A stretch of DNA of 64,000 bases from Amylibacter sp. GTDB lineage: Bacteria > Pseudomonadota > Alphaproteobacteria > Rhodobacterales > Rhodobacteraceae. Under the pieces are notes generated by a model. The model was not told the DNA's origin. It searched no databases and saw only the letters and a program-made list of their open reading frames with translations. Positions 2,878 to 64,000 of this stretch are shown piece after piece. The position numbers and the translations under genes were made by a program. Every line of letters starts with the position of its first letter. Within the stretch, counting starts at the first letter, position 1. Location: assembly GCA_965206885.1 (NCBI GenBank), contig CBDBLJ010000002.1, positions 18,459 through 82,458 on the forward strand. Reading direction: 5' to 3'.

Positions 2878-4232
2878 GGCACTTCTCCGCTTTGTTGAGT
2901 AGATTTAGGATTTCAAATAGAGCATAGATTGATTATCTGGAATGGATGATTGTCTAATTTTGAGTTTGAAGTATTCGGTATCCTTGATGCCTCTGGCTCG
3001 CTTACGGATCATTCCTATACTGACATTACCAGCCTCTATCCTGGCGCTTGTGAGCTTGTGTTTGGCGTAGTTGCAGATGCCCACACAATGTTTCCGTAGG
3101 GATTTCGCGAACTTTTTTAGATAGAGCATCTGTGACTGATCTGCTATCAGGCACCAACGTTCCAGTTGCTCCGCCATCGCCTCAAATGAAGCGGCACTCC
3201 ACAGCAGCTGAAGCTGTTCTTTCAAGACGTAAAGTGCATTCAGGTTGCTATTGCTCTCCAGCAACCTTTGCAGCTTGTCACTTTGTTTTTCACTCAACTT
3301 ATCCGCATTTTTGAGCAACAGATAATGCGTCCCTTTCATCAACTCTTTACCACTTGGATCGGCCTTTCTGAACTCAAGTCGACGCTGATTATGGATAGCT
3401 TTGCTGTAGTTTTTCATGACGTGGAAACGGTCAAATACTATGTCGGCCAACGGCAAGGACTCTCTGACAGCCTTTTGGTAGGCAGGCCCCATATCCATCG
3501 CTACGGCCTTTATTTTGCAGGCTGTATCTGGTTGCAGTTGTTTCAAAAACCTTGAAAAAACCTCGGCAGTTCGGCCTGCTTCAACCCAGATCAGATGACC
3601 GCCAACCATATCGTAGACCACCGTCATGTAGTCATGACCTTTCGCCCGGGCAACTTCATCTACACCAATATATTCCAAGCCAGTTAGCTCTGCAGGATCA
3701 AGCGTAGGGAGAGTTTCAATAAGGTATGCCCTGTCGATATTCTTGACCGTTTCCCATCGTATATCCAAATGTCTGGAAACCGCTTGAATAGACATATGCC
3801 GACATAATCCACTGATCAGTCGGCAAAATCGGTGAGTGAAACGGCACCCTTTATCAACAAAATCACACCCCTCAATGCGGCGTTCGCCCTTGTTAATATA
3901 AACCTGCGCCAGCTCAATCTCGACCACACAAGGATACCCAAAAAGGGGGATGTCGTTTACTTGTCGGCGGACATGCTGGTTGATGCTTCCCTTCTGGCCT
4001 GTAGCAGGGTCTATAGCCCTCCTACGCGCGTCTCGGCTGCAGTGAATGACAATCTTAACACCGCCGTCATCCAGTTTAATTTCATTTACACGTTGCCCTT
4101 TGAGGCCTAAAATATGCTGCGAGATGTTGATTGTCATATACCTGCTCTATGTAAAGTTATCAGAAACCATACATATCAACAGGTTACTTGGCGGTCGGCA
4201 TCTTTTTCTACTCAACAAAGCGGAGAAGAGCC
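2878..4232 (-). mobile_element. ISL3-family insertion sequence, 1355 bp, copy 1
   Basis: 25-bp terminal IRs GGCACTTCTCCGCTTTGTTGAGTAG with 1 mismatch; 8-bp TSD AAAATCAA at 2870..2877 and 4233..4240. Confidence 0.95.
2905..4137 (-). CDS. ISL3-family transposase (410 aa)
   Basis: IGVDE, VAMDM...Y, IVFDRFHVMK motifs and a C-terminal EAGN..I..I.KRARG segment typical of DDE_Tnp_ISL3. Confidence 0.93.
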   Translation of the reverse strand: MTINISQHILGLKGQRVNEIKLDDGGVKIVIHCSRDARRRAIDPATGQKGSINQHVRRQVNDIPLFGYPCVVEIELAQVYINKGERRIEGCDFVDKGCRFTHRFCRLISGLCRHMSIQAVSRHLDIRWETVKNIDRAYLIETLPTLDPAELTGLEYIGVDEVARAKGHDYMTVVYDMVGGHLIWVEAGRTAEVFSRFLKQLQPDTACKIKAVAMDMGPAYQKAVRESLPLADIVFDRFHVMKNYSKAIHNQRRLEFRKADPSGKELMKGTHYLLLKNADKLSEKQSDKLQRLLESNSNLNALYVLKEQLQLLWSAASFEAMAEQLERWCLIADQSQMLYLKKFAKSLRKHCVGICNYAKHKLTSARIEAGNVSIGMIRKRARGIKDTEYFKLKIRQSSIPDNQSMLYLKS

Positions 4233-4501
4233 AAAATCAACAATCTCGGATGTCTTAACACTAATGTCTTGCATCCAATCCCGTTCATCTGGTTCAGCAA
4301 AACGGTAGGTGAATTCGAGCTCGGCATCGCCACCAAGTATAACAGCGCCCTCTTCCACCAATCCATTTTCTATACTCATCTTAACCGAGCCGATGCTTGC
4401 AATAGCTCCGACACCCAAGGCAAGACAGATAATGAAAACCCAGAAACCGCGAAGGCCGCTGCGCAATTCACGGTAAGCAATACGAACAGCAACAGATGTA
4501 T

Positions 4502-5206
4502 TCATTCCGCAGCTTTCTGAGCTTGGATAAGATCGATGCGACCATCAGACAAGCGGACAATACGATCACAACGAGCAGCCAATTCAGTCGAATGCGTTAC
4601 CAGAACGATAGTTGTCCCGTATTTGTCACGCAGCCCTAGTAACAAATCAATAATCACCTGCCCGGTGGTACCATCCAGATTGCCCGTTGGCTCGTCTGCC
4701 AACAAAATATCAGGCCGTGTAGCAGCAGCACGCGCCAGTGCAACGCGTTGTTGTTCACCACCAGACATCTGCGATGGGTAATGATCCAACCTCGCACCTA
4801 AGCCAACGGCACAAAGCTCATCTTTTGCTTGTTCAAACGCATCTTTCACGCCTGCAAGCTCTAACGGTATTGCAACATTTTCTAAAGCCGTCATGGTCGG
4901 AATAAGGTGGAAAGATTGGAAGACAACCCCCATATGATTAAGACGAAACTTGGCCAGCGCATCTTCGTTTAACACCGAGAGGTTCTGTCCCAATGCATAG
5001 ATTGTACCACCTGTGGCCTGTTCTAGGCCTCCCATTAGCATAAGGAGCGATGATTTGCCTGAACCAGATGGCCCTACGAGCCCAAGAGTTTCTCCGCGGA
5101 CAACATCCAAAGTGATGTTGTGTAATATGTCGACGGAACCAGCATTGCCAGATAGTTTAAGATATGCATTCTTTAGAGATAGTATAGGTTCAACCAAGAT
5201 TTTCAT
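4502..5206 (-). CDS. ybbA: ABC transporter ATP-binding protein, YbbA-like (likely start 5206)
   Basis: Walker A GPSGSGKS, signature MSGGEQQR, LLADEPTGNLD; divergent from tesA and overlapping the ybbP start. Confidence 0.88.
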   Translation of the reverse strand: MKILVEPILSLKNAYLKLSGNAGSVDILHNITLDVVRGETLGLVGPSGSGKSSLLMLMGGLEQATGGTIYALGQNLSVLNEDALAKFRLNHMGVVFQSFHLIPTMTALENVAIPLELAGVKDAFEQAKDELCAVGLGARLDHYPSQMSGGEQQRVALARAAATRPDILLADEPTGNLDGTTGQVIIDLLLGLRDKYGTTIVLVTHSTELAARCDRIVRLSDGRIDLIQAQKAAE

Positions 5207-5225
5207 CCTCAGGATTTGTTCTACA

Positions 5226-5891
5226 ATGATATATTGTCCGTTACGCGTATTCTGCAAGCAAACAATTGCGTTACTTTTCATACTCTTTTCCATAACGCCC
5301 GTATTTGCAGCGCCTGTGGTTGTCGCCGCACTTGGTGATAGCCTGACACAAGGTTACGGTTTATCCCGTGAAAATGGATTTGTACCGCAACTGGAAACAT
5401 GGTTGCGTGGTAAAGGTGAAGACGTCAAGGTTTTGAATGCAGGTGTTTCAGGAGACACAACCGCAGGAGGGCTGTCCCGTATAGCTTGGACACTAACACC
5501 TGAAGTTGACGCTTTGATTGTAAACCTAGGCGGGAATGACTTACTGCGTGGCATTAACCCTGCTGCAAGCCGTGCGAATTTGGACAGTATCTTACAAATA
5601 GCCAAGGAAAAGGAGTTGCCAGTGTTGCTTGTCGGCCTGATCGCTCCAGGGAATTATGGGCCAGAGTACAAGGTAGAATTTGACCTTATCTATCGCGAAC
5701 TAAGTCACAAGTATGGAGCATTATTTTATGAAAATTTTTTCATTACGCTTATTGAAAACAGTGATGCTAAAAATCCAAACTACCGTTTCATGCAAAGTGA
5801 CGGTATTCATCCAAATGCTTTGGGTGTGGCAAGAGTTGTAAACGATATTGCCCCCCTTGTACTCAAATTGATTGCTCAAGCTCAGAAATAA
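5226..5891 (+). CDS. tesA: SGNH/GDSL arylesterase / thioesterase I, exported (likely start 5226)
   Basis: Signal-peptide-like N-terminus, ALGDSL, NAGVSGDTT, LGGND and DGIHPN blocks; conserved tesA-ybbAP layout. Confidence 0.88.
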   Translation: MIYCPLRVFCKQTIALLFILFSITPVFAAPVVVAALGDSLTQGYGLSRENGFVPQLETWLRGKGEDVKVLNAGVSGDTTAGGLSRIAWTLTPEVDALIVNLGGNDLLRGINPAASRANLDSILQIAKEKELPVLLVGLIAPGNYGPEYKVEFDLIYRELSHKYGALFYENFFITLIENSDAKNPNYRFMQSDGIHPNALGVARVVNDIAPLVLKLIAQAQK

Positions 5892-5943
5892 CACGCCATT
5901 ATGTAATAATTTAGCTCGGTATATGCCTTTACCATATGCTATT

Positions 5944-6843
5944 TTATTTTGTTGTAGGAACAGATTCCAAAACATTAAGAACTTCCGAATATATCCAGCG
6001 AGAAAATATCTGTGCAAGGCTATCTTCTTGTTCTTCTTTTACGGTAATGAAATATCGATCTGATGCTAAAATCCGATCATCAAGCGGCATGATAAGAGCT
6101 TTCTCCGCAATTGCAGGTGTTGCAAGAAGCAGACTTGTCAACGCCACCCCTGCTCCATTACGTGCAAGGCCAATAGCCAAACCATGGGAGTCAACGAGTT
6201 GAGCAATATTTTGGGGAGGCTCTAAATTAAGCTCATTTGACCACTTTTCCCACGTTTCTGAAGTACCAACAATTTGAATACGTCGTGCGTTACAAATATC
6301 ATCCCAAGACGGCTGCCCATTAAATATATCAGGGGCGCATACCATAACAATGTGGTCATGATATAACTCTTTAGCTCCTTTTCCAGCTGCCTCATAAGAG
6401 CCAAAGCGAATTTCGACATCAGCATCTGAAGCCATAAAATCATCTGGCCATAGTGTACTTTTAATGCGGATTTGTACGCTTGGATAACAATCAAGAAACT
6501 TCGATAAATTTGGCACAATAAAACTTTGAGCAAAGCTGATACTTGCGGCAATTGTAAGTGTATCATTTGATTGATCTGGCTCAAAAGCCGCAGCTACGCT
6601 GGCAAGACCACTGATAGACTCAGTCACATTTGGTAAAATACGGCGACCAGTATCTGTCAGAGCTAACCCTCTGGGCAATCGGATAAATAGTGGCACGCCA
6701 AATCGTTGTTCAAGCAGCCGTACCTGTTGGCTGATTGCCGATTGCGTCAGCCCCAATTCAAGCGCTGCCGCAGTAAAACTAAGGTGCCGTGCTGCACATT
6801 CAAAAGCACGGAACCAAGTTAATGGGGGGATTTTTCTCTGCAT
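5944..6843 (-). CDS. LysR-family regulator, GcvA-like
   Basis: PPLTWFRAFECAARHLSFTAAALELGLTQSAISQQVR helix-turn-helix; divergent from the HD/Rieske pair. Confidence 0.9.
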   Translation of the reverse strand: MQRKIPPLTWFRAFECAARHLSFTAAALELGLTQSAISQQVRLLEQRFGVPLFIRLPRGLALTDTGRRILPNVTESISGLASVAAAFEPDQSNDTLTIAASISFAQSFIVPNLSKFLDCYPSVQIRIKSTLWPDDFMASDADVEIRFGSYEAAGKGAKELYHDHIVMVCAPDIFNGQPSWDDICNARRIQIVGTSETWEKWSNELNLEPPQNIAQLVDSHGLAIGLARNGAGVALTSLLLATPAIAEKALIMPLDDRILASDRYFITVKEEQEDSLAQIFSRWIYSEVLNVLESVPTTK

Positions 6844-59550: not shown

Positions 59551-59776
59551 GAAAGACAACAGTTAATCACTGTTGTCTTTCTCACCTGCTCCACCTTCCA
59601 AAGCCTCTTCATCCACCCCTGTGAGAGCAGCACCTGCTATGGTTTTCTTTTGCGTTTCAGTTAGGTTTTGTGTGTTGGTATCATCCGCCAATCGTACAGT
59701 CACTTCACGGTGTGCAAACTTGATACCTTCACGCGCGAACAGGTCACGAATTTCCTGAAACACACGTTTACGAATG

Positions 59777-59906
59777 GTAAGCATCAAGGGAACCCCCTCT
59801 ATTTTGGTTTGATTTGAGATGCGATTATTGCGCGAGGCTGGCGGTTTGGTTGGCGCGATATGAGGATTTTTCTGATGAGCAAGCGACGGGCTGGGCGAGG
59901 TTCCAA
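59777..59906 (+). repeat. Left arm of the 130-bp inverted repeat (partner 63178..63307)
   Basis: Ungapped manual alignment gives 120/130 identities, with the first 32 bp perfect; the arm includes the tnpA start region. Confidence 0.9.
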
Positions 59907-60240
59907 ATACACGGATGATTTTAAGCGACGGCTAGTGGCGGAGAGCCAAGGTGATGGCGTGAGTGTTCCGATGGTCTCGCGGCGTCATGATGTGCCACCC
60001 CGCCGGATTTACGCGTGGCGCGGTGATGCGCGGTTCCAGCCGGACGCGTCGGGTGATACCGGCTTCATACCAGTCGAAGTGGCAAACAGTGATACTGATG
60101 TTTCATCTGTGCTGCCAGAAGCGCAGCTTACAACCAGTCCCCAGATTGAGATCACTTTGGAGAATGGGCGCAAGCTGAGCGTGAGCGGTGGGGTTGATGC
60201 GGGCTTTGTGCTGGAATTGGCGCGTGGGCTGGCGGCATGA
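59875..60240 (+). CDS. tnpA: IS66 TnpA (HTH accessory protein)
   Basis: [12 protein letters not shown]...GVSV..VSRRHDV...[19 protein letters not shown]; ATGA overlap with tnpB. Confidence 0.88.
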
Positions 60241-60584
60241 TCCCGGTACTGGCGGATGCAAAGATCTGGCTGGCGGCGGGGGTGACTGACATGCGGCGCG
60301 GGTTCAACGGTCTGGCCGTTCAGACCGAGCAGGTTCTGGGGGGGGATCCTTACTCCGGCCATCTGTTTTTGTTCCGAGGGCGACGCGGTGATCAGATCAA
60401 GATGATCTGGTGGGATGGTCAGGGCGCGTGCCTGTTTACCAAGCGCCTTGAACGGGGTCGGTTTATCTGGCCCTCTGCTCAGGAAGGTAAGATCAACCTG
60501 AGCCGTGCGCAGCTTGCGATGCTGATGGAAGGTCTGGATTGGCGTATGCCGCTCAAGACATGGCGACCCAAGATGGTAGGTTAG
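60237..60584 (+). CDS. tnpB: IS66 TnpB accessory protein
   Basis: [51 protein letters not shown]. Confidence 0.95.
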
Positions 60585-60654
60585 AGGCAATGTTTTATGG
60601 GTATTTCTGACGTTTTGGGATTCCCATGAGGCCCTTGATTTGGTAAGGAGTGGC

Positions 60655-62340
60655 ATGAGTAAGACCCCTCCAAATCTGGCTGATTTGCCCCCTGACGTGC
60701 AGGCGTTTGTGGCCGCACAAGCGGCGGAATTGGCTCGTAAAGACGCGGAGTTGTTGGGGCTGTCGTTGAGCCATGCCACAGCGCAAAAGCGCCTTGAAAA
60801 TGAGATGGAAGCGGCTCTTGCTGCGGAGCGCGCCGCCCATGCGCTTGCCATTATGAGCAGAGATACCCTGATTGCCGATCTGCGCCTGCAATTGCACGGA
60901 CATAAAAAACATCGCTTCGGTTCAAAGTCAGAAAGCAGCACACAGCTGGCGCTGGCGCTGATCCTTGAAGATCTTGAAATCGAACAAGCCGCTGAGACGG
61001 ATGATGAGAATGGGCCCTCTGACGCTGAGACCACAAAGCCGCCGCGTACCCCGCGCAAGCGCAAACCTTTCCCCAAGGGGCTCAAGCGGGTCAAAAAGAC
61101 CATCACGCCCAGTGATGCTTGCACCGACTGTGGTGGCAGCTTCAAAGTGCTCGGGACAGATGTGATGGAAGAACTGGAATATGTGCCCGGCCATTACGTC
61201 GTAAAACAACTTGAGCGCCCACGACTGGCCTGCACCTGTTGTGAGAAGGTGGTTCAGGCCGAGATGCCAAGCCGTCCTATTCCCAAGAGCTTTGTCGGCC
61301 CTGCGTTGATGGCCCACATCTTGTGCTGCAAATACGGCTATCATCTGCCGCTGTATCGACAGAGCCAGATGTTTGAGAATGAAGGCATCGATCTGAGCGG
61401 GTCGCTCATGGCCAACTGGGTCGGCAAATGCACTAAGCTGTTGGAGCGCGTGGCTGATGCCATCCGGGATCACGTTTTTGAGGCGCAAGCGATCTTCATG
61501 GACGACACCACGGTCAAACTGCTCCAAAAGGGCAAGGGACGCGGTAATAACAAGACAAAAACCGCGCGGCTCTGGGTCTATGCCAGAGATGAGAGCGCCT
61601 GGGCGAGCGGCGCACCACCGGCGGTGTGGTATCAGTTCTCCACCAACCGGGGCGCAGAACATCCGAGCAAACATCTCAAGCCCTACAAGGGCTATGCCCA
61701 TGCGGATGCCTATGCTGGGTATAATGACGCCTATCGGACGGGGCGCGTCAAAGAGATGGCCTGCATGGCCCATGTTCGGCGGGATTTTTATAGCCTGTTT
61801 GAAAGTCTGAAGCTGCCCGTGGCGGGCGAAGCCGTTCTGCGCATTCGAAAGCTCTATGATGTTGAGGCACAAGCGCGGGGTCTGGCGCCTGCTGAGCGCG
61901 TGGCCCTGCGTCAGGAATATGCCAAGCCGATCTTTGATGAGTTGGAAATCTGGCTCAAGGAGCAGCTGGGCAAGATCTCCGTTAAGACGCCGCTGGCCAA
62001 GGCGATCAGATATGCGCTCGCGCGCATGCCAAAGGCGCGGCCCTATCTCGACAATGGCTTTCTGGAAATCGACAACAACACAGCCGAGCGTGCGGTGCGC
62101 CCTGTGGCCGTTGGACGTAAGAACTACCTGTTCATGGGATCAGAGGCAGGTGGAAAATCCGCCGCCATAGCCTACACCCTCATCGAAACCGCCAAGATGA
62201 ACAACGTCAATCCCGAAGCCTGGCTCGCATGGGTGCTCGAGCGCATCCAGGATCATCCCGCAAACCGTATGCAAGATCTCCTACCGTGGGCCTATCAGGA
62301 GATGATCGAGGAGCGGGAACAAAGCGTTATAGCGGCATGA
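60655..62340 (+). CDS. tnpC: IS66 TnpC DDE transposase
   Basis: Leucine-zipper-like region, FGSKSE, zinc-finger C..CGG and C..C, KYGYHLPLYRQ, FMDDT, CMAHVRR, IDNN.AERAVR. Confidence 0.95.
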   Translation: MSKTPPNLADLPPDVQAFVAAQAAELARKDAELLGLSLSHATAQKRLENEMEAALAAERAAHALAIMSRDTLIADLRLQLHGHKKHRFGSKSESSTQLALALILEDLEIEQAAETDDENGPSDAETTKPPRTPRKRKPFPKGLKRVKKTITPSDACTDCGGSFKVLGTDVMEELEYVPGHYVVKQLERPRLACTCCEKVVQAEMPSRPIPKSFVGPALMAHILCCKYGYHLPLYRQSQMFENEGIDLSGSLMANWVGKCTKLLERVADAIRDHVFEAQAIFMDDTTVKLLQKGKGRGNNKTKTARLWVYARDESAWASGAPPAVWYQFSTNRGAEHPSKHLKPYKGYAHADAYAGYNDAYRTGRVKEMACMAHVRRDFYSLFESLKLPVAGEAVLRIRKLYDVEAQARGLAPAERVALRQEYAKPIFDELEIWLKEQLGKISVKTPLAKAIRYALARMPKARPYLDNGFLEIDNNTAERAVRPVAVGRKNYLFMGSEAGGKSAAIAYTLIETAKMNNVNPEAWLAWVLERIQDHPANRMQDLLPWAYQEMIEEREQSVIAA

Positions 62341-63170
62341 TCGGCCCCCGTGATTCAGCGGCACTCCCAGAGCAAGGGGATCTGTTTGAAGAGCGCGGGA
62401 ATTGGCAAGGGCCAGATACCTCACAGCACGACTTGGGCGTTGAAAACCTTGAAGGCTTGTCCGACAAAGACCTCGTCGAGAAGACGGCAAAGGCTACACT
62501 GTCCAACGTCGACCTGCTGTGCGCCCAGATTGTGGAACGGGGCTTGGGAGATATAGCCGTTCCGGGTCTCGTCGCGCTTTGGAACCGGTTTAAGGGGTTC
62601 GGAATTGCGACCCCTTTACCAGAACAAAAGCTTGCCTTGGAAACTCTTCGCGCCATTGGGAATGAAGCTGCAAAAAAAGAAATCAGCAAGATCCTTGGCG
62701 CACAGGACTTGCCCGACAGCTTGCTCCCGTTTGTGTTGCAAGCCGCTGTGAGCGTGGGCTTGAAGCTGCCTCAGGCACAAATCTTGCCATGGCTGGAACA
62801 CGGCGCACCAACAGTCCGTGCCCAAGCCTTCATCCTTATACAATCGAACAGCCCACAGCGAAGCACCTTGGAAATCGGGTTCAGCGACCCAGACCCTTCA
62901 GTCCGACGAACCGCTCTGACAGTGGCGGGGAATCTGGGCCATATCAGCGCAAGGGCAGGATTGCTTGCCGAGTTCCGGAAAAATCCAACCAGCCAAAAGA
63001 TCGAAGCGCTTTTAACTGTCGCCGATGACGACATCGTTGTTGAAATCGGAAGATACGCACTGGAAAATCCGCCTCACCGGTGCCTCATCGCAAGTGAACT
63101 TGAGGCTCTGGACACACCCAAAGCCCGAAAGCTGGCCCAACGAATCAACGATCAGATAATGCAGCGTTGA
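62337..63170 (+). CDS. IS66 passenger gene: 277-aa alpha-helical HEAT/PBS-lyase-like protein with N-terminal QGDLF
   Basis: ATG overlaps the tnpC stop (ATGA); HEAT-like units LEHGAPTVRAQAF and FSDPDPSVRRTAL..AGNLG; stops 7 bp before the right repeat arm. Confidence 0.75.
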   Translation: MIGPRDSAALPEQGDLFEERGNWQGPDTSQHDLGVENLEGLSDKDLVEKTAKATLSNVDLLCAQIVERGLGDIAVPGLVALWNRFKGFGIATPLPEQKLALETLRAIGNEAAKKEISKILGAQDLPDSLLPFVLQAAVSVGLKLPQAQILPWLEHGAPTVRAQAFILIQSNSPQRSTLEIGFSDPDPSVRRTALTVAGNLGHISARAGLLAEFRKNPTSQKIEALLTVADDDIVVEIGRYALENPPHRCLIASELEALDTPKARKLAQRINDQIMQR

Positions 63171-63177
63171 TGTTTAC

Positions 63178-63307
63178 TTGGAACCTCGGCCACCCCGTCG
63201 CTTGATCATCAGAAAAATCCTCATATCACGCCAGCCACATCGCCAGCCTCGCGCAATAATCGCAGCTCAAGTCAGACCAAAATAGAGGGGGTTCCCTTGA
63301 TGCTTAC
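63178..63307 (-). repeat. Right arm of the 130-bp inverted repeat; a diverged IS66 left end with a tnpA stub
   Basis: The minus strand reads ATG ATC AAG CGA CGG GGT GGC CGA GGT TCC AAG TAA (MIKRRGGRGSK*), versus [12 protein letters not shown] in the real tnpA. Confidence 0.85.
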
Positions 63308-63347
63308 TACGAATGCTCCATTGGTCCCCTGGTTTGGTCATAAATTT

Positions 63348-64000
63348 GGCACTTCTCCGCTTTGTTGAGTAGATTTAGGATTTTAAATAGAGCATAGATT
63401 GATTATCTGGAATGGATGATTGTCTAATTTTGAGTTTGAAGTATTCGGTATCCTTGATGCCTCTGGCTCGCTTACGGATCATTCCTATACTGACATTACC
63501 AGCCTCTATCCTGGCGCTTGTGAGCTTGTGTTTGGCGTAGTTGCAGATGCCCACACAATGTTTCCGTAGGGATTTCGCGAACTTTTTTAGATAGAGCATC
63601 TGTGACTGATCTGCTATCAGGCACCAACGTTCCAGTTGCTCCGCCATCGCCTCAAATGAAGCGGCACTCCACAGCAGCTGAAGCTGTTCTTTCAAGACGT
63701 AAAGTGCATTCAGGTTGCTATTGCTCTCCAGCAACCTTTGCAGCTTGTCACTTTGTTTTTCACTCAACTTATCCGCATTTTTGAGCAACAGATAATGCGT
63801 CCCTTTCATCAACTCTTTACCACTTGGATCGGCCTTTCTGAACTCAAGTCGACGCTGATTATGGATAGCTTTGCTGTAGTTTTTCATGACGTGGAAACGG
63901 TCAAATACTATGTCGGCCAACGGCAAGGACTCTCTGACAGCCTTTTGGTAGGCAGGCCCCATATCCATCGCTACGGCCTTTATTTTGCAGGCTGTATCTG
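63348..64000 (-). mobile_element. ISL3-family insertion sequence, copy 2 (partial, runs off the window)
   Basis: Starts with the same IR as copy 1; transposase 3' part 63375..64000; one synonymous difference noticed (2914 C versus 63384 T). Predicted TSD ATAAATTT. Confidence 0.93.

Follow-up and report, generated by a model that had tools for sequence, protein, structure and literature searches.

A stretch of 64,000 nucleotides from Amylibacter sp. (contig CBDBLJ010000002.1), referred to at its full length as the window, contains a complete element of the IS66 family of insertion sequences (IS) at positions 59777–63307 (3531 bp), and the open reading frame (ORF) which follows the transposase genes tnpA, tnpB, and tnpC in this element, called ORF4 here, is the subject of this work. 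ORF4 is a real fourth gene of an active IS66-family transposon, predicted to be expressed with the other three genes as a unit. As a preliminary description of the DNA, made from the letters alone, had proposed, it is an integrated gene. It is also co-inherited with the element: its start is coupled to tnpC by an ATGA overlap, its stop lies at the terminal repeat, it transposes jointly with the other genes, it is under selection, and it has diverged together with TnpC. Judged from alignments and a structural model, the encoded protein is a member of a large family in which a predicted disordered tail with a clamp-type peptide precedes a HEAT-like alpha-solenoid, and the tail probably binds DnaN, the beta clamp of the replisome. 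The ways in which insertion sequences make contact with the host replisome are understood only in part, and a separate clamp adaptor coupled to a transposase, if this is what ORF4 encodes, would offer a clean genetic handle of one gene or five residues with which one could ask whether clamp contact governs how often IS66 transposes, which targets it chooses (plasmids, lagging strand), and which hosts it can use. If confirmed, a sizeable bacterial family with an optimal clamp peptide would be a new class of partners in the DnaN interactome; should ORF4 be mere cargo, the element would still be a well-documented passenger-carrying IS66 element (tIS66) with an unusual and deeply integrated passenger.

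Integration of ORF4 into the element

The features of the element which bear on ORF4 are the following.

59769–59776: target-site duplication of 8 bp, TACGAATG, left copy; repeated directly after the right end
59777–59912, plus strand: left inverted repeat; the terminal GTAAGCATCAAGGGAACCCCCT is an IS66-type end, and the 136-nt arm reaches into the start of tnpA
62337–63170, plus strand: ORF4, 277 amino acids, protein with putative clamp motif and HEAT-like solenoid; its start ATG overlaps the tnpC stop
63164–63177, plus strand: remnant of a former right terminus, GCGTTGATGTTTAC, which encloses the ORF4 stop TGA (63168–63170)
63172–63307, minus strand: right inverted repeat, in which the left 136 nt recur in inverted orientation; the element now terminates at its outer end
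63308–63315: right copy of the target-site duplication, TACGAATG, matching the left copy

The start codon of ORF4 (ATG at 62337) and the stop codon of tnpC (TGA at 62338–62340) share an ATGA, the junction of tnpA and tnpB at 60237 is likewise an ATGA, and GCGGCATGATC is common to both junctions, in agreement with the coupling that had been read from the letters before. No promoter-like (sigma-70-like) site was found between tnpC and ORF4. The overlap is kept in 22 of 22 IS66-linked loci bearing the motif described below, down to 51% identity, and is absent only in a solo copy. A longer frame from the ATG at 62229 (313 amino acids) was rejected, as nearly all full-length homologues start at the methionine of the ATGA overlap; a few gene calls among the homologues (P0006, P0019, and P0036) are longer. 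At its other end ORF4 fills the space up to the right repeat, as also described previously: it ends at 63170, and the repeat arm begins at 63172, two bases past the stop. Neither a fifth gene nor an antitoxin-like partner was found within the element in the list of ORFs. An extra gene in this place, between tnpC and the right repeat and inside the element, agrees with the definition of a tIS66 (PMC12888890).

The element starts with GTAAGCATCAAGG, GTAAGC coming first, and finishes with its reverse complement. A repeat finder gave the two arms as 136 nt with 91% complementarity, and the terminal 22-mer occurs at both ends of the element and at no further place in the window. Inverted repeats of the GTAAGC type and an 8-bp target-site duplication, the features of IS66 ends, are thus both present; IS66 elements of Paracoccus have 8-bp duplications too. 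Five further copies of the element were found, four of 3531 bp and one of 3525 bp, which have identical termini and perfect 8-bp duplications of their own (GATTAGCT, GTTCGATG, CCTTTTCC, CCTGAAGC, and GCTGTATC), the one flanked by GCTGTATC sitting within the tnpC of another copy. With two other lineages, flanked by CACAAGGT and GATTGTTG, perfect 8-bp duplications were seen at eight independent insertions in all. The ORF4 protein, at 99% identity, was present on 18 contigs of one metagenome (ERZ25069296), again including a copy within a copy. The four-gene unit transposes as a whole.

A word-indexed search for homologues yielded 37 proteins, mostly of 272–278 amino acids, many of them on contigs of 3.4–4.0 kb, which is the size of the element. 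All retrieved contexts of homologues with 51–99% identity had the order tnpA-tnpB-tnpC-ORF4, and a tblastn survey of 25 loci confirmed this arrangement save for truncated relics and one solo copy. The genome records of these close homologues are from Rhodobacterales (Tateyamaria, Roseovarius, Paracoccaceae, and one Pseudovibrio fragment). The solo copy (locus L013, 4968–5789, in the Paracoccaceae metagenome-assembled genome OZ252048.1) is an intact paralogue of 273 amino acids with the motif QWDLFGERG and the start context ATGG; it adjoins parA and a toxin-antitoxin-like pair resembling HigB/HigA, carries no IS66 remnant nearby, and resides in a genome which also holds three complete four-gene elements. 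A tblastn search of 72,556 plasmids with ORF4 and with a distant relative gave no match.

The ratio of nonsynonymous to synonymous substitution rates was 0.13–0.35 for ORF4 and 0.07–0.15 for tnpC, so that ORF4 is under purifying selection, less strict than that on tnpC. Across eight lineages the pairwise identities of ORF4 and TnpC correlated with r = 0.93.

Another finding was that the ORF4 stop codon lies within or directly abuts the terminal repeat in every lineage examined. As the elements of five loci (L008, L015, L018, L019, and L022) terminate exactly with ...CGT TGA TGCTTAC, the stop codon there belongs to the terminal repeat (GTAAGCATCAACG in reverse reading); the terminal repeat of L017 begins immediately after the stop. 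The older terminus is retained as GCGTTGATGTTTAC in the window, in L001, and in L003, and the L001 element and the L003 contig terminate with ...TGTTTAC. In the lineage of the window the inverted copy of the left-end 136 nt comes after the old end and has taken over as the working terminus. In the window, and also in L002, L004, L009, and L012, the right end appears to have been rebuilt from inverted left-end copies. The 136-nt inverted copy in the window takes in the start region of tnpA, and an inverted left-end copy could drive an inward antisense transcript over ORF4. A 45–49-nt version of the inverted copy is found in L002 and L009, and in the Roseovarius loci an inverted block of tnpA, tnpB, and the 5' part of tnpC adjoins ORF4.

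The ORF4 protein and its family

Three parts were distinguished in the protein.

62337–62441, plus strand: predicted disordered N-terminal tail, residues 1–35; model confidence below 50, column entropy high save at the motif
62373–62399, plus strand: linear motif Q13-G-D-L-F17-E-E-R-G21; its core QGDLF is a putative beta-clamp-binding motif
62454–63167, plus strand: predicted HEAT-like alpha-solenoid, residues 40–277, 15 helices (AlphaFold2 model, alphaRep matches)

Translation of the N-terminus yields M-I-G-P-R-D-S-A-A-L-P-E-Q13-G-D-L-F17, which places QGDLF at residues 13–17 as previously given. An AlphaFold2 model calculated with 26 homologues had a mean predicted local distance difference test (pLDDT) score of 79, with values of 80–92 for residues 40–277; residues 1–35, with scores below 50, are treated as disordered, in line with the disordered tail which had been assumed. 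In an alignment of 23 full-length homologues Q13, D15, L16, F17, R20, and G21 have zero column entropy, position 14 is glycine or tryptophan, and the flanks reach about 2 bits or more. An invariant motif amid highly variable flanks is what characterizes short linear motifs in disordered tails. QGDLF agrees with the clamp-binding consensus QL[S/D]LF at four of five positions and deviates at the tolerant position 2. QLDLF is the consensus pentapeptide for clamp binding and, according to several studies, the strongest binder; in it Gln1, Leu4, and Phe5 are critical; position 2 tolerates substitution, replacement of the leucine there lowers affinity, and acidic residues after the motif favour binding (reviewed in PMC11139829). 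QLDLF has been engineered into the alpha subunit of Pol III for tighter binding to the clamp (PMC4703070). The substitutions tolerated in the ORF4 family match these published mutational data on clamp peptides. A peptide of the consensus type, a predicted disordered terminal location, and conservation amid variable flanks, the traits expected of a clamp binder, are thus all found in ORF4.

The body of the protein is helical and HEAT-like in the model, profile, and fold searches, which supports what the preliminary description had recognized, including its statement that there is no catalytic signature. By sequence the assignment falls short, the Pfam HEAT_2 profile giving 24.0 bits against a gathering cut-off of 27.7; some homologues have a precomputed PF13646 match. 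A profile search of the PDB returned only alphaRep designs, which are consensus repeats of the PBS-lyase type with a HEAT-like fold (best E value 1.9e-7). Foldseek against the PDB returned alphaRep, designed armadillo proteins, importin-alpha, and the CpcE/F lyase, with E values from 4.5e-4 and template modelling (TM) scores of 0.49–0.60, so that by structure the predicted protein has the paired antiparallel helices of solved HEAT-like proteins. Foldseek against the viral BFVD set gave nothing at E ≤ 0.001. Neither an AlkD-like glycosylase nor a TnsE or toxin fold was found in the PDB sequence search or in the Foldseek searches of PDB and BFVD; scans with NCBIfam and PADLOC were without a match for ORF4, only the sub-threshold HEAT_2 hit came from Pfam, and for relatives PADLOC gave only marginal repeat-type matches for two. 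No catalytic or nucleotide-binding motif was recognized. The most conserved internal block of the family, L81-W-N-R-F-K-G-F-G89 ... P95-E-Q97, lies in the solenoid. With a calculated isoelectric point of 6.4 for the folded part, that is near neutral, ORF4 fits protein binding better than DNA binding.

An exhaustive hidden Markov model search of 1.84 billion cluster representatives gave 800 matches at E ≤ 1e-3, 236 at E ≤ 1e-10, and 64 at E ≤ 1e-30, nearly all of 255–300 amino acids and matching end to end. Q-x-[D/S/N]-L-F is present in 96 of 105 full-length distant members with a median start at residue 10 (QLDLF 48, QPDLF 15, QGDLF 10, QFDLF 5), and the exceptions are mostly truncated gene calls. 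Within the first 60 residues it occurs in 85 of the 105, compared with a mean of 0.065 and a maximum of 1 per set of 105 after shuffling. The family consensus, QLDLF, equals the clamp consensus at five of five positions. The conservation of QxDLF which the preliminary description had asked for thus extends from the invariant Q, D, L, and F of the 23 close homologues to the family as a whole: in an alignment of 61 sequences spanning it the only invariant columns are L16, F17, R68, R161, and L209, and Q13 and D15 exceed 90%. R20 and G21 are not conserved in this wider family. The source databases name the proteins only 'hypothetical' or 'HEAT repeat protein', and in a literature search no paper joining HEAT repeats with clamp-binding motifs was found.

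Of the distant members, one was seen in a two-component-system region, one between group II introns, toxin-antitoxin genes, and restriction genes, and others in IS-rich patches or beside cobalamin or sulfatase genes. No conserved operon partner was found for the free-standing members, the upstream genes varying between a response regulator, Uma2, DUF7713, and proteins of no assigned kind; in one lineage the genes of an FKBP isomerase and a cation-efflux protein keep a stable synteny with the family member. A protein of about 695 amino acids with an NgoFVII-like phospholipase D (PLD) nuclease domain and a P-loop (Walker A) adjoins a family member in 8 of 63 free-standing loci, in several sub-clades, and the two may form a two-gene module. 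The loci concerned are L049, L064, L067, L075, L077, L087, L103, and L109, all from soil metagenomes.

Family members also occur in a second IS66 lineage (L063, L072–L074, and further L099 and L106), with ends GTAAGCGCCCGG... and a TnpC 40–47% identical to that of the window. Here a member with a QPDLF-type motif lies about 100 nt past tnpC, inside the right repeat. In a neighbour-joining tree the clade of the window, with L013 as its sister, nests among the free-standing proteins of one main branch and the second IS66 clade falls within the other one, which suggests, on this tree, two separate captures by IS66. Between the second lineage and the window TnpC is about 45% and ORF4 about 28% identical, in line with the trend within the clade of the window (clade A), and such divergence levels alone do not separate two captures from one ancient capture: ORF4 changes at about twice the rate of TnpC, so that comparable identities would also be expected if IS66 had captured the gene once, long ago, and members had then escaped several times. 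Whichever history applies, a random link between the family and IS66 is unlikely. Position 2 of the motif is other than leucine in both IS66-borne clades (glycine or tryptophan, and proline) and mostly leucine in free-standing members.

Possible roles of ORF4 at the clamp

The explanation which we favour, tentatively and at somewhat less than even odds, is that ORF4 docks on the clamp while its solenoid holds the transposition complex or a host factor, coupling insertion or repair to newly replicated DNA. ORF4 would be translated by termination and reinitiation directly after TnpC so that its synthesis would coincide with that of the transposase in both place and time. The tail would dock into the hydrophobic cleft of the DNA-loaded clamp and the solenoid would hold a partner, most plausibly the complex of TnpC, TnpB, and TnpA or a host factor, so that IS66 transposition, or the gap repair or replication after strand transfer, would be tied to newly replicated DNA marked by the clamp. 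As TnpC has a candidate Q-L-x-L-x-L motif of its own and the clamp is a dimer with two clefts, ORF4 and TnpC could share one clamp.

A broader proposal, which we consider doubtful, is that proteins of about 270 amino acids with a QLDLF tail and a HEAT solenoid form a hitherto unrecognized, widespread family of DnaN-clamp adaptors, recruited by IS66 at least twice, or once anciently with later escapes and domestication. In IS66 they would be a dedicated replisome-coupling subunit and a functional analogue of TnsE, setting where or when the element inserts, and, the clamp cleft being conserved, would help it across hosts.

TnsE of Tn7 is reported to bind the beta clamp and thereby to direct insertion to replicating DNA (Parks et al. 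2009, cited in PMC3971601). Like it, ORF4 would be a transposon-encoded, clamp-binding accessory protein apart from the transposase; this is a functional analogy only, and Tn7 belongs to another class of transposons. No homology to TnsE appeared in the Pfam, NCBIfam, PDB sequence, or Foldseek searches, which gave HEAT/ARM matches only. In Hda the clamp-binding motif is N-terminal. Hda, which binds the clamp (PMC11139829), resembles ORF4 in having a peptide of the clamp-binding type within the first 10–20 residues ahead of a folded domain, but is an AAA+ protein, whereas ORF4 is a HEAT-like solenoid without such a domain. The PBS-lyase-type HEAT-like repeats of alphaRep and CpcE/CpcF are the best sequence and fold matches of ORF4 (TM score 0.57 for CpcE/F); the likeness is confined to the repeat architecture, ORF4 having no lyase context.

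Clamp interaction of transposases is documented, as the preliminary description had noted. Binding to the polymerase cleft of E. coli beta is known for peptides from IS66 TnpC and from eight further transposon families, and within IS66 the location of the motif shifts between TnpB and TnpC (PMC3971601). A stronger beta-binding motif led to a higher transposition rate of IS1634 in vivo (PMC4549789). The motifs of IS66a TnpC and TnpB, IS5, IS30, IS91, IS200, IS1380, ISL3, and IS1634 are peptides of the Q-L-x-L-F/L type; the TnpC of the window has QLALAL. In contrast, the motif of ORF4, the best of the element, is carried by a separate solenoid protein whose family is found also outside transposons.

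The closest known architecture is that of the tIS66 elements, to which 7 of 25 Pseudomonas IS66 entries in ISfinder belong by their passengers, an example being ISPa75 with fosZ downstream of the transposase (PMC12888890). The tnpA-tnpB-tnpC backbone, the GTAAGC termini, the 8-bp duplications, and a passenger after tnpC which moves along are alike in ISPa75-fosZ and the element of the window. The passenger differs, ORF4 being a putative replisome-binding scaffold and neither a resistance nor a metabolic gene, and so does its attachment, with the start in the tnpC stop, the stop in or against the terminal repeat, and co-divergence with TnpC to identities as low as about 50%; a second IS66 lineage has, moreover, a distant member of its family. 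New, accordingly, are the kind of passenger, how deeply it is integrated, that it recurs in two lineages of IS66, and that a large unannotated family with a canonical N-terminal clamp motif exists, while the ordinary IS66 backbone and the tIS66 architecture were known already.

Several observations weigh against the favoured explanation. The interval from tnpC to the right repeat is known as a general cargo slot, occupied by sugE or fosZ in other elements. The majority of the distant family members are free-standing genes in varied neighbourhoods, and in a set of 80 loci of one sub-clade from soil metagenomes 25 of the 28 with at least 1.5 kb of upstream sequence had no IS66 gene at all; as most members thus stand free of IS66, the basic function of the family is not transposition. 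ORF4 is also not essential to the mechanism of IS66, because most IS66 elements transpose without it and TnpC has a candidate clamp motif. Furthermore, the motif of the window has glycine at position 2, and its relatives tryptophan or proline, and residues other than leucine there lower peptide affinity (PMC11139829). The linkage of the family to IS66 which the preliminary description had envisaged holds for the close homologues, all of them IS66-built, and fails for most of the distant ones. Homologues mostly unlinked to IS66 were one of the two sequence findings it had named as speaking against its proposal, and they were found in part; the other, a motif that is not conserved, was not found.

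The strongest alternative is that ORF4 is a tIS66 passenger captured from a chromosomal or plasmid family, still clamp-binding but of benefit outside transposition. Such a benefit might lie in modulation of replication or repair or in conflicts between mobile elements, phages, and hosts, the gene being kept for persistence of the carrier or of the element. That unrelated passengers use the slot is illustrated by plasmid p3SUD7 of Sulfitobacter sp. D7 (L026; NZ_CP020697.1, locus 3001–6005), where an IS66 element with 83% DNA identity to that of the window, over a stretch which begins at the left end and breaks off 30 nt short of the tnpC stop, has sugE, an efflux gene of the small multidrug resistance type, in place of ORF4, and by fosZ and others in tIS66 elements (PMC12888890). 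The same explanation is favoured by the free-standing genes which make up most of the family, by the intact solo copy beside parA and a toxin-antitoxin-like pair, and by the PLD/P-loop neighbour in 8 of 63 free-standing loci, other loci lying among IS, group II introns, toxin-antitoxin, and restriction genes. In addition, the closest pairs (window versus L001 and L003) have a lower synonymous divergence in ORF4 (0.23–0.36) than in tnpC (0.74–0.83), which suggests exchange of an ORF4 module between IS66 backbones by recombination. Typical passengers, however, show no translational coupling to the transposase and are not merged with the terminal repeat; sugE starts 33 bp past the tnpC stop without overlap and is followed by a short right repeat. 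The divergence of ORF4 has, on the contrary, paralleled that of TnpC down to identities of about 50%, the same rare family recurs in two distant IS66 lineages, and no PADLOC defence model matched significantly. On balance a passenger serving the carrier in this way is not what we expect, and we hold it to be an unlikely but serious explanation.

The favoured docking on the clamp presupposes that the motif is read by DnaN. Clamp-binding motifs are short and degenerate, and the IS66 clade adds the invariant R20 and G21, which lie outside the clamp consensus; Q-x-D-L-F-x-x-R-G could hence serve another partner, such as the protein's own solenoid, TnpB or TnpC, or a host hub, and its likeness to QL[SD]LF could be convergent or coincidental. 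This is improbable in view of the exact optimal QLDLF in about half of the distant members and of a family-wide variation in which position 2 is free and Q, L4, and F5 are fixed, as in the mutational data on clamp peptides. The motif lies, besides, at a predicted disordered terminus as in Hda, and the wider family lacks conservation of R20 and G21.

Least probable of all is a brake, in which ORF4 would compete for the clamp cleft with TnpC, or with Hda and the polymerases of the host, and so damp or time transposition or replication, or would, if overproduced, be a factor of the addiction type or one which mildly arrests growth: the expressed peptide MGPRQLDLF does inhibit growth of E. coli (reviewed in PMC11139829), competition is possible since TnpC has its own Q-L-x-L-x-L, and the non-leucine position 2 of both IS66-borne clades could mean a tuned, weaker affinity, but the element has no antitoxin-like partner, is present in many copies (18 contigs of one sample) with no visible sign of selection against it, belongs to a family whose solo and free-standing copies persist, and encodes a conserved solenoid of about 240 residues, more than a cleft-blocking peptide needs.

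Transposase genes and surroundings of the element

The remaining features of the element are those of its transposase genes.

59860–60240, plus strand: tnpA, HTH_Tnp_1 (PF01527, E 7.7e-10); alternative start at 59875
60237–60584, plus strand: tnpB, IS66 Orf2-like accessory protein (PF05717, E 5.6e-39); ATGA overlap with tnpA
60640–62340, plus strand: tnpC, IS66 DDE transposase (PF03050, E 5e-95), with leucine zipper, zinc-finger, and C-terminal IS66 domains
60943–60960, plus strand: QLALAL, TnpC residues 102–107, a Q-L-x-L-x-L candidate clamp-binding hexamer after the leucine zipper

All of PF01527, PF05717, PF03050, PF13005, PF13007, and PF13817 were found above the Pfam thresholds, as befits an IS66 element. 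The tnpC frame opens with TTG at 60640, and an alignment of TnpC homologues indicated the ATG at 60655 (MSKTPP...) as the likely start. The TnpC hexamer is kept as QLALEL or QLVLEL in relatives both with and without ORF4, and in the TnpC of the second IS66 lineage QLELRL was read by eye just after the leucine zipper. We know of no established role for TnpA and TnpB of IS66. TnpB of the window has QLAMLM, of the Q-L-x-L-x-L type, at residues 92–97. The beta-binding motif of IS66 TnpC can lie upstream or downstream of the leucine zipper (Gomez et al. 2014, PMC3971601).

The G+C content of the element is 0.55–0.61 and that of the peptide-ABC-transporter genes flanking it 0.43–0.48. The higher value points to a recent import, and, all named relatives being Rhodobacterales, the host, of lower G+C, appears to have acquired the element recently from another lineage. 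In ERZ25069296 tandem and nested copies of the element lie beside a Mu-like prophage (L045, L046), and the 18 contigs with ORF4 vary in coverage, some being plasmid-like with repC, parB, and virB4. A short ORF interrupted by the element in the window (59563–59787, minus strand) had no significant Pfam match. About 70 bp past the right end of the element a fragment of an ISL3-family transposase occupies 63375–63968 on the minus strand (PF01610, E 5e-50).

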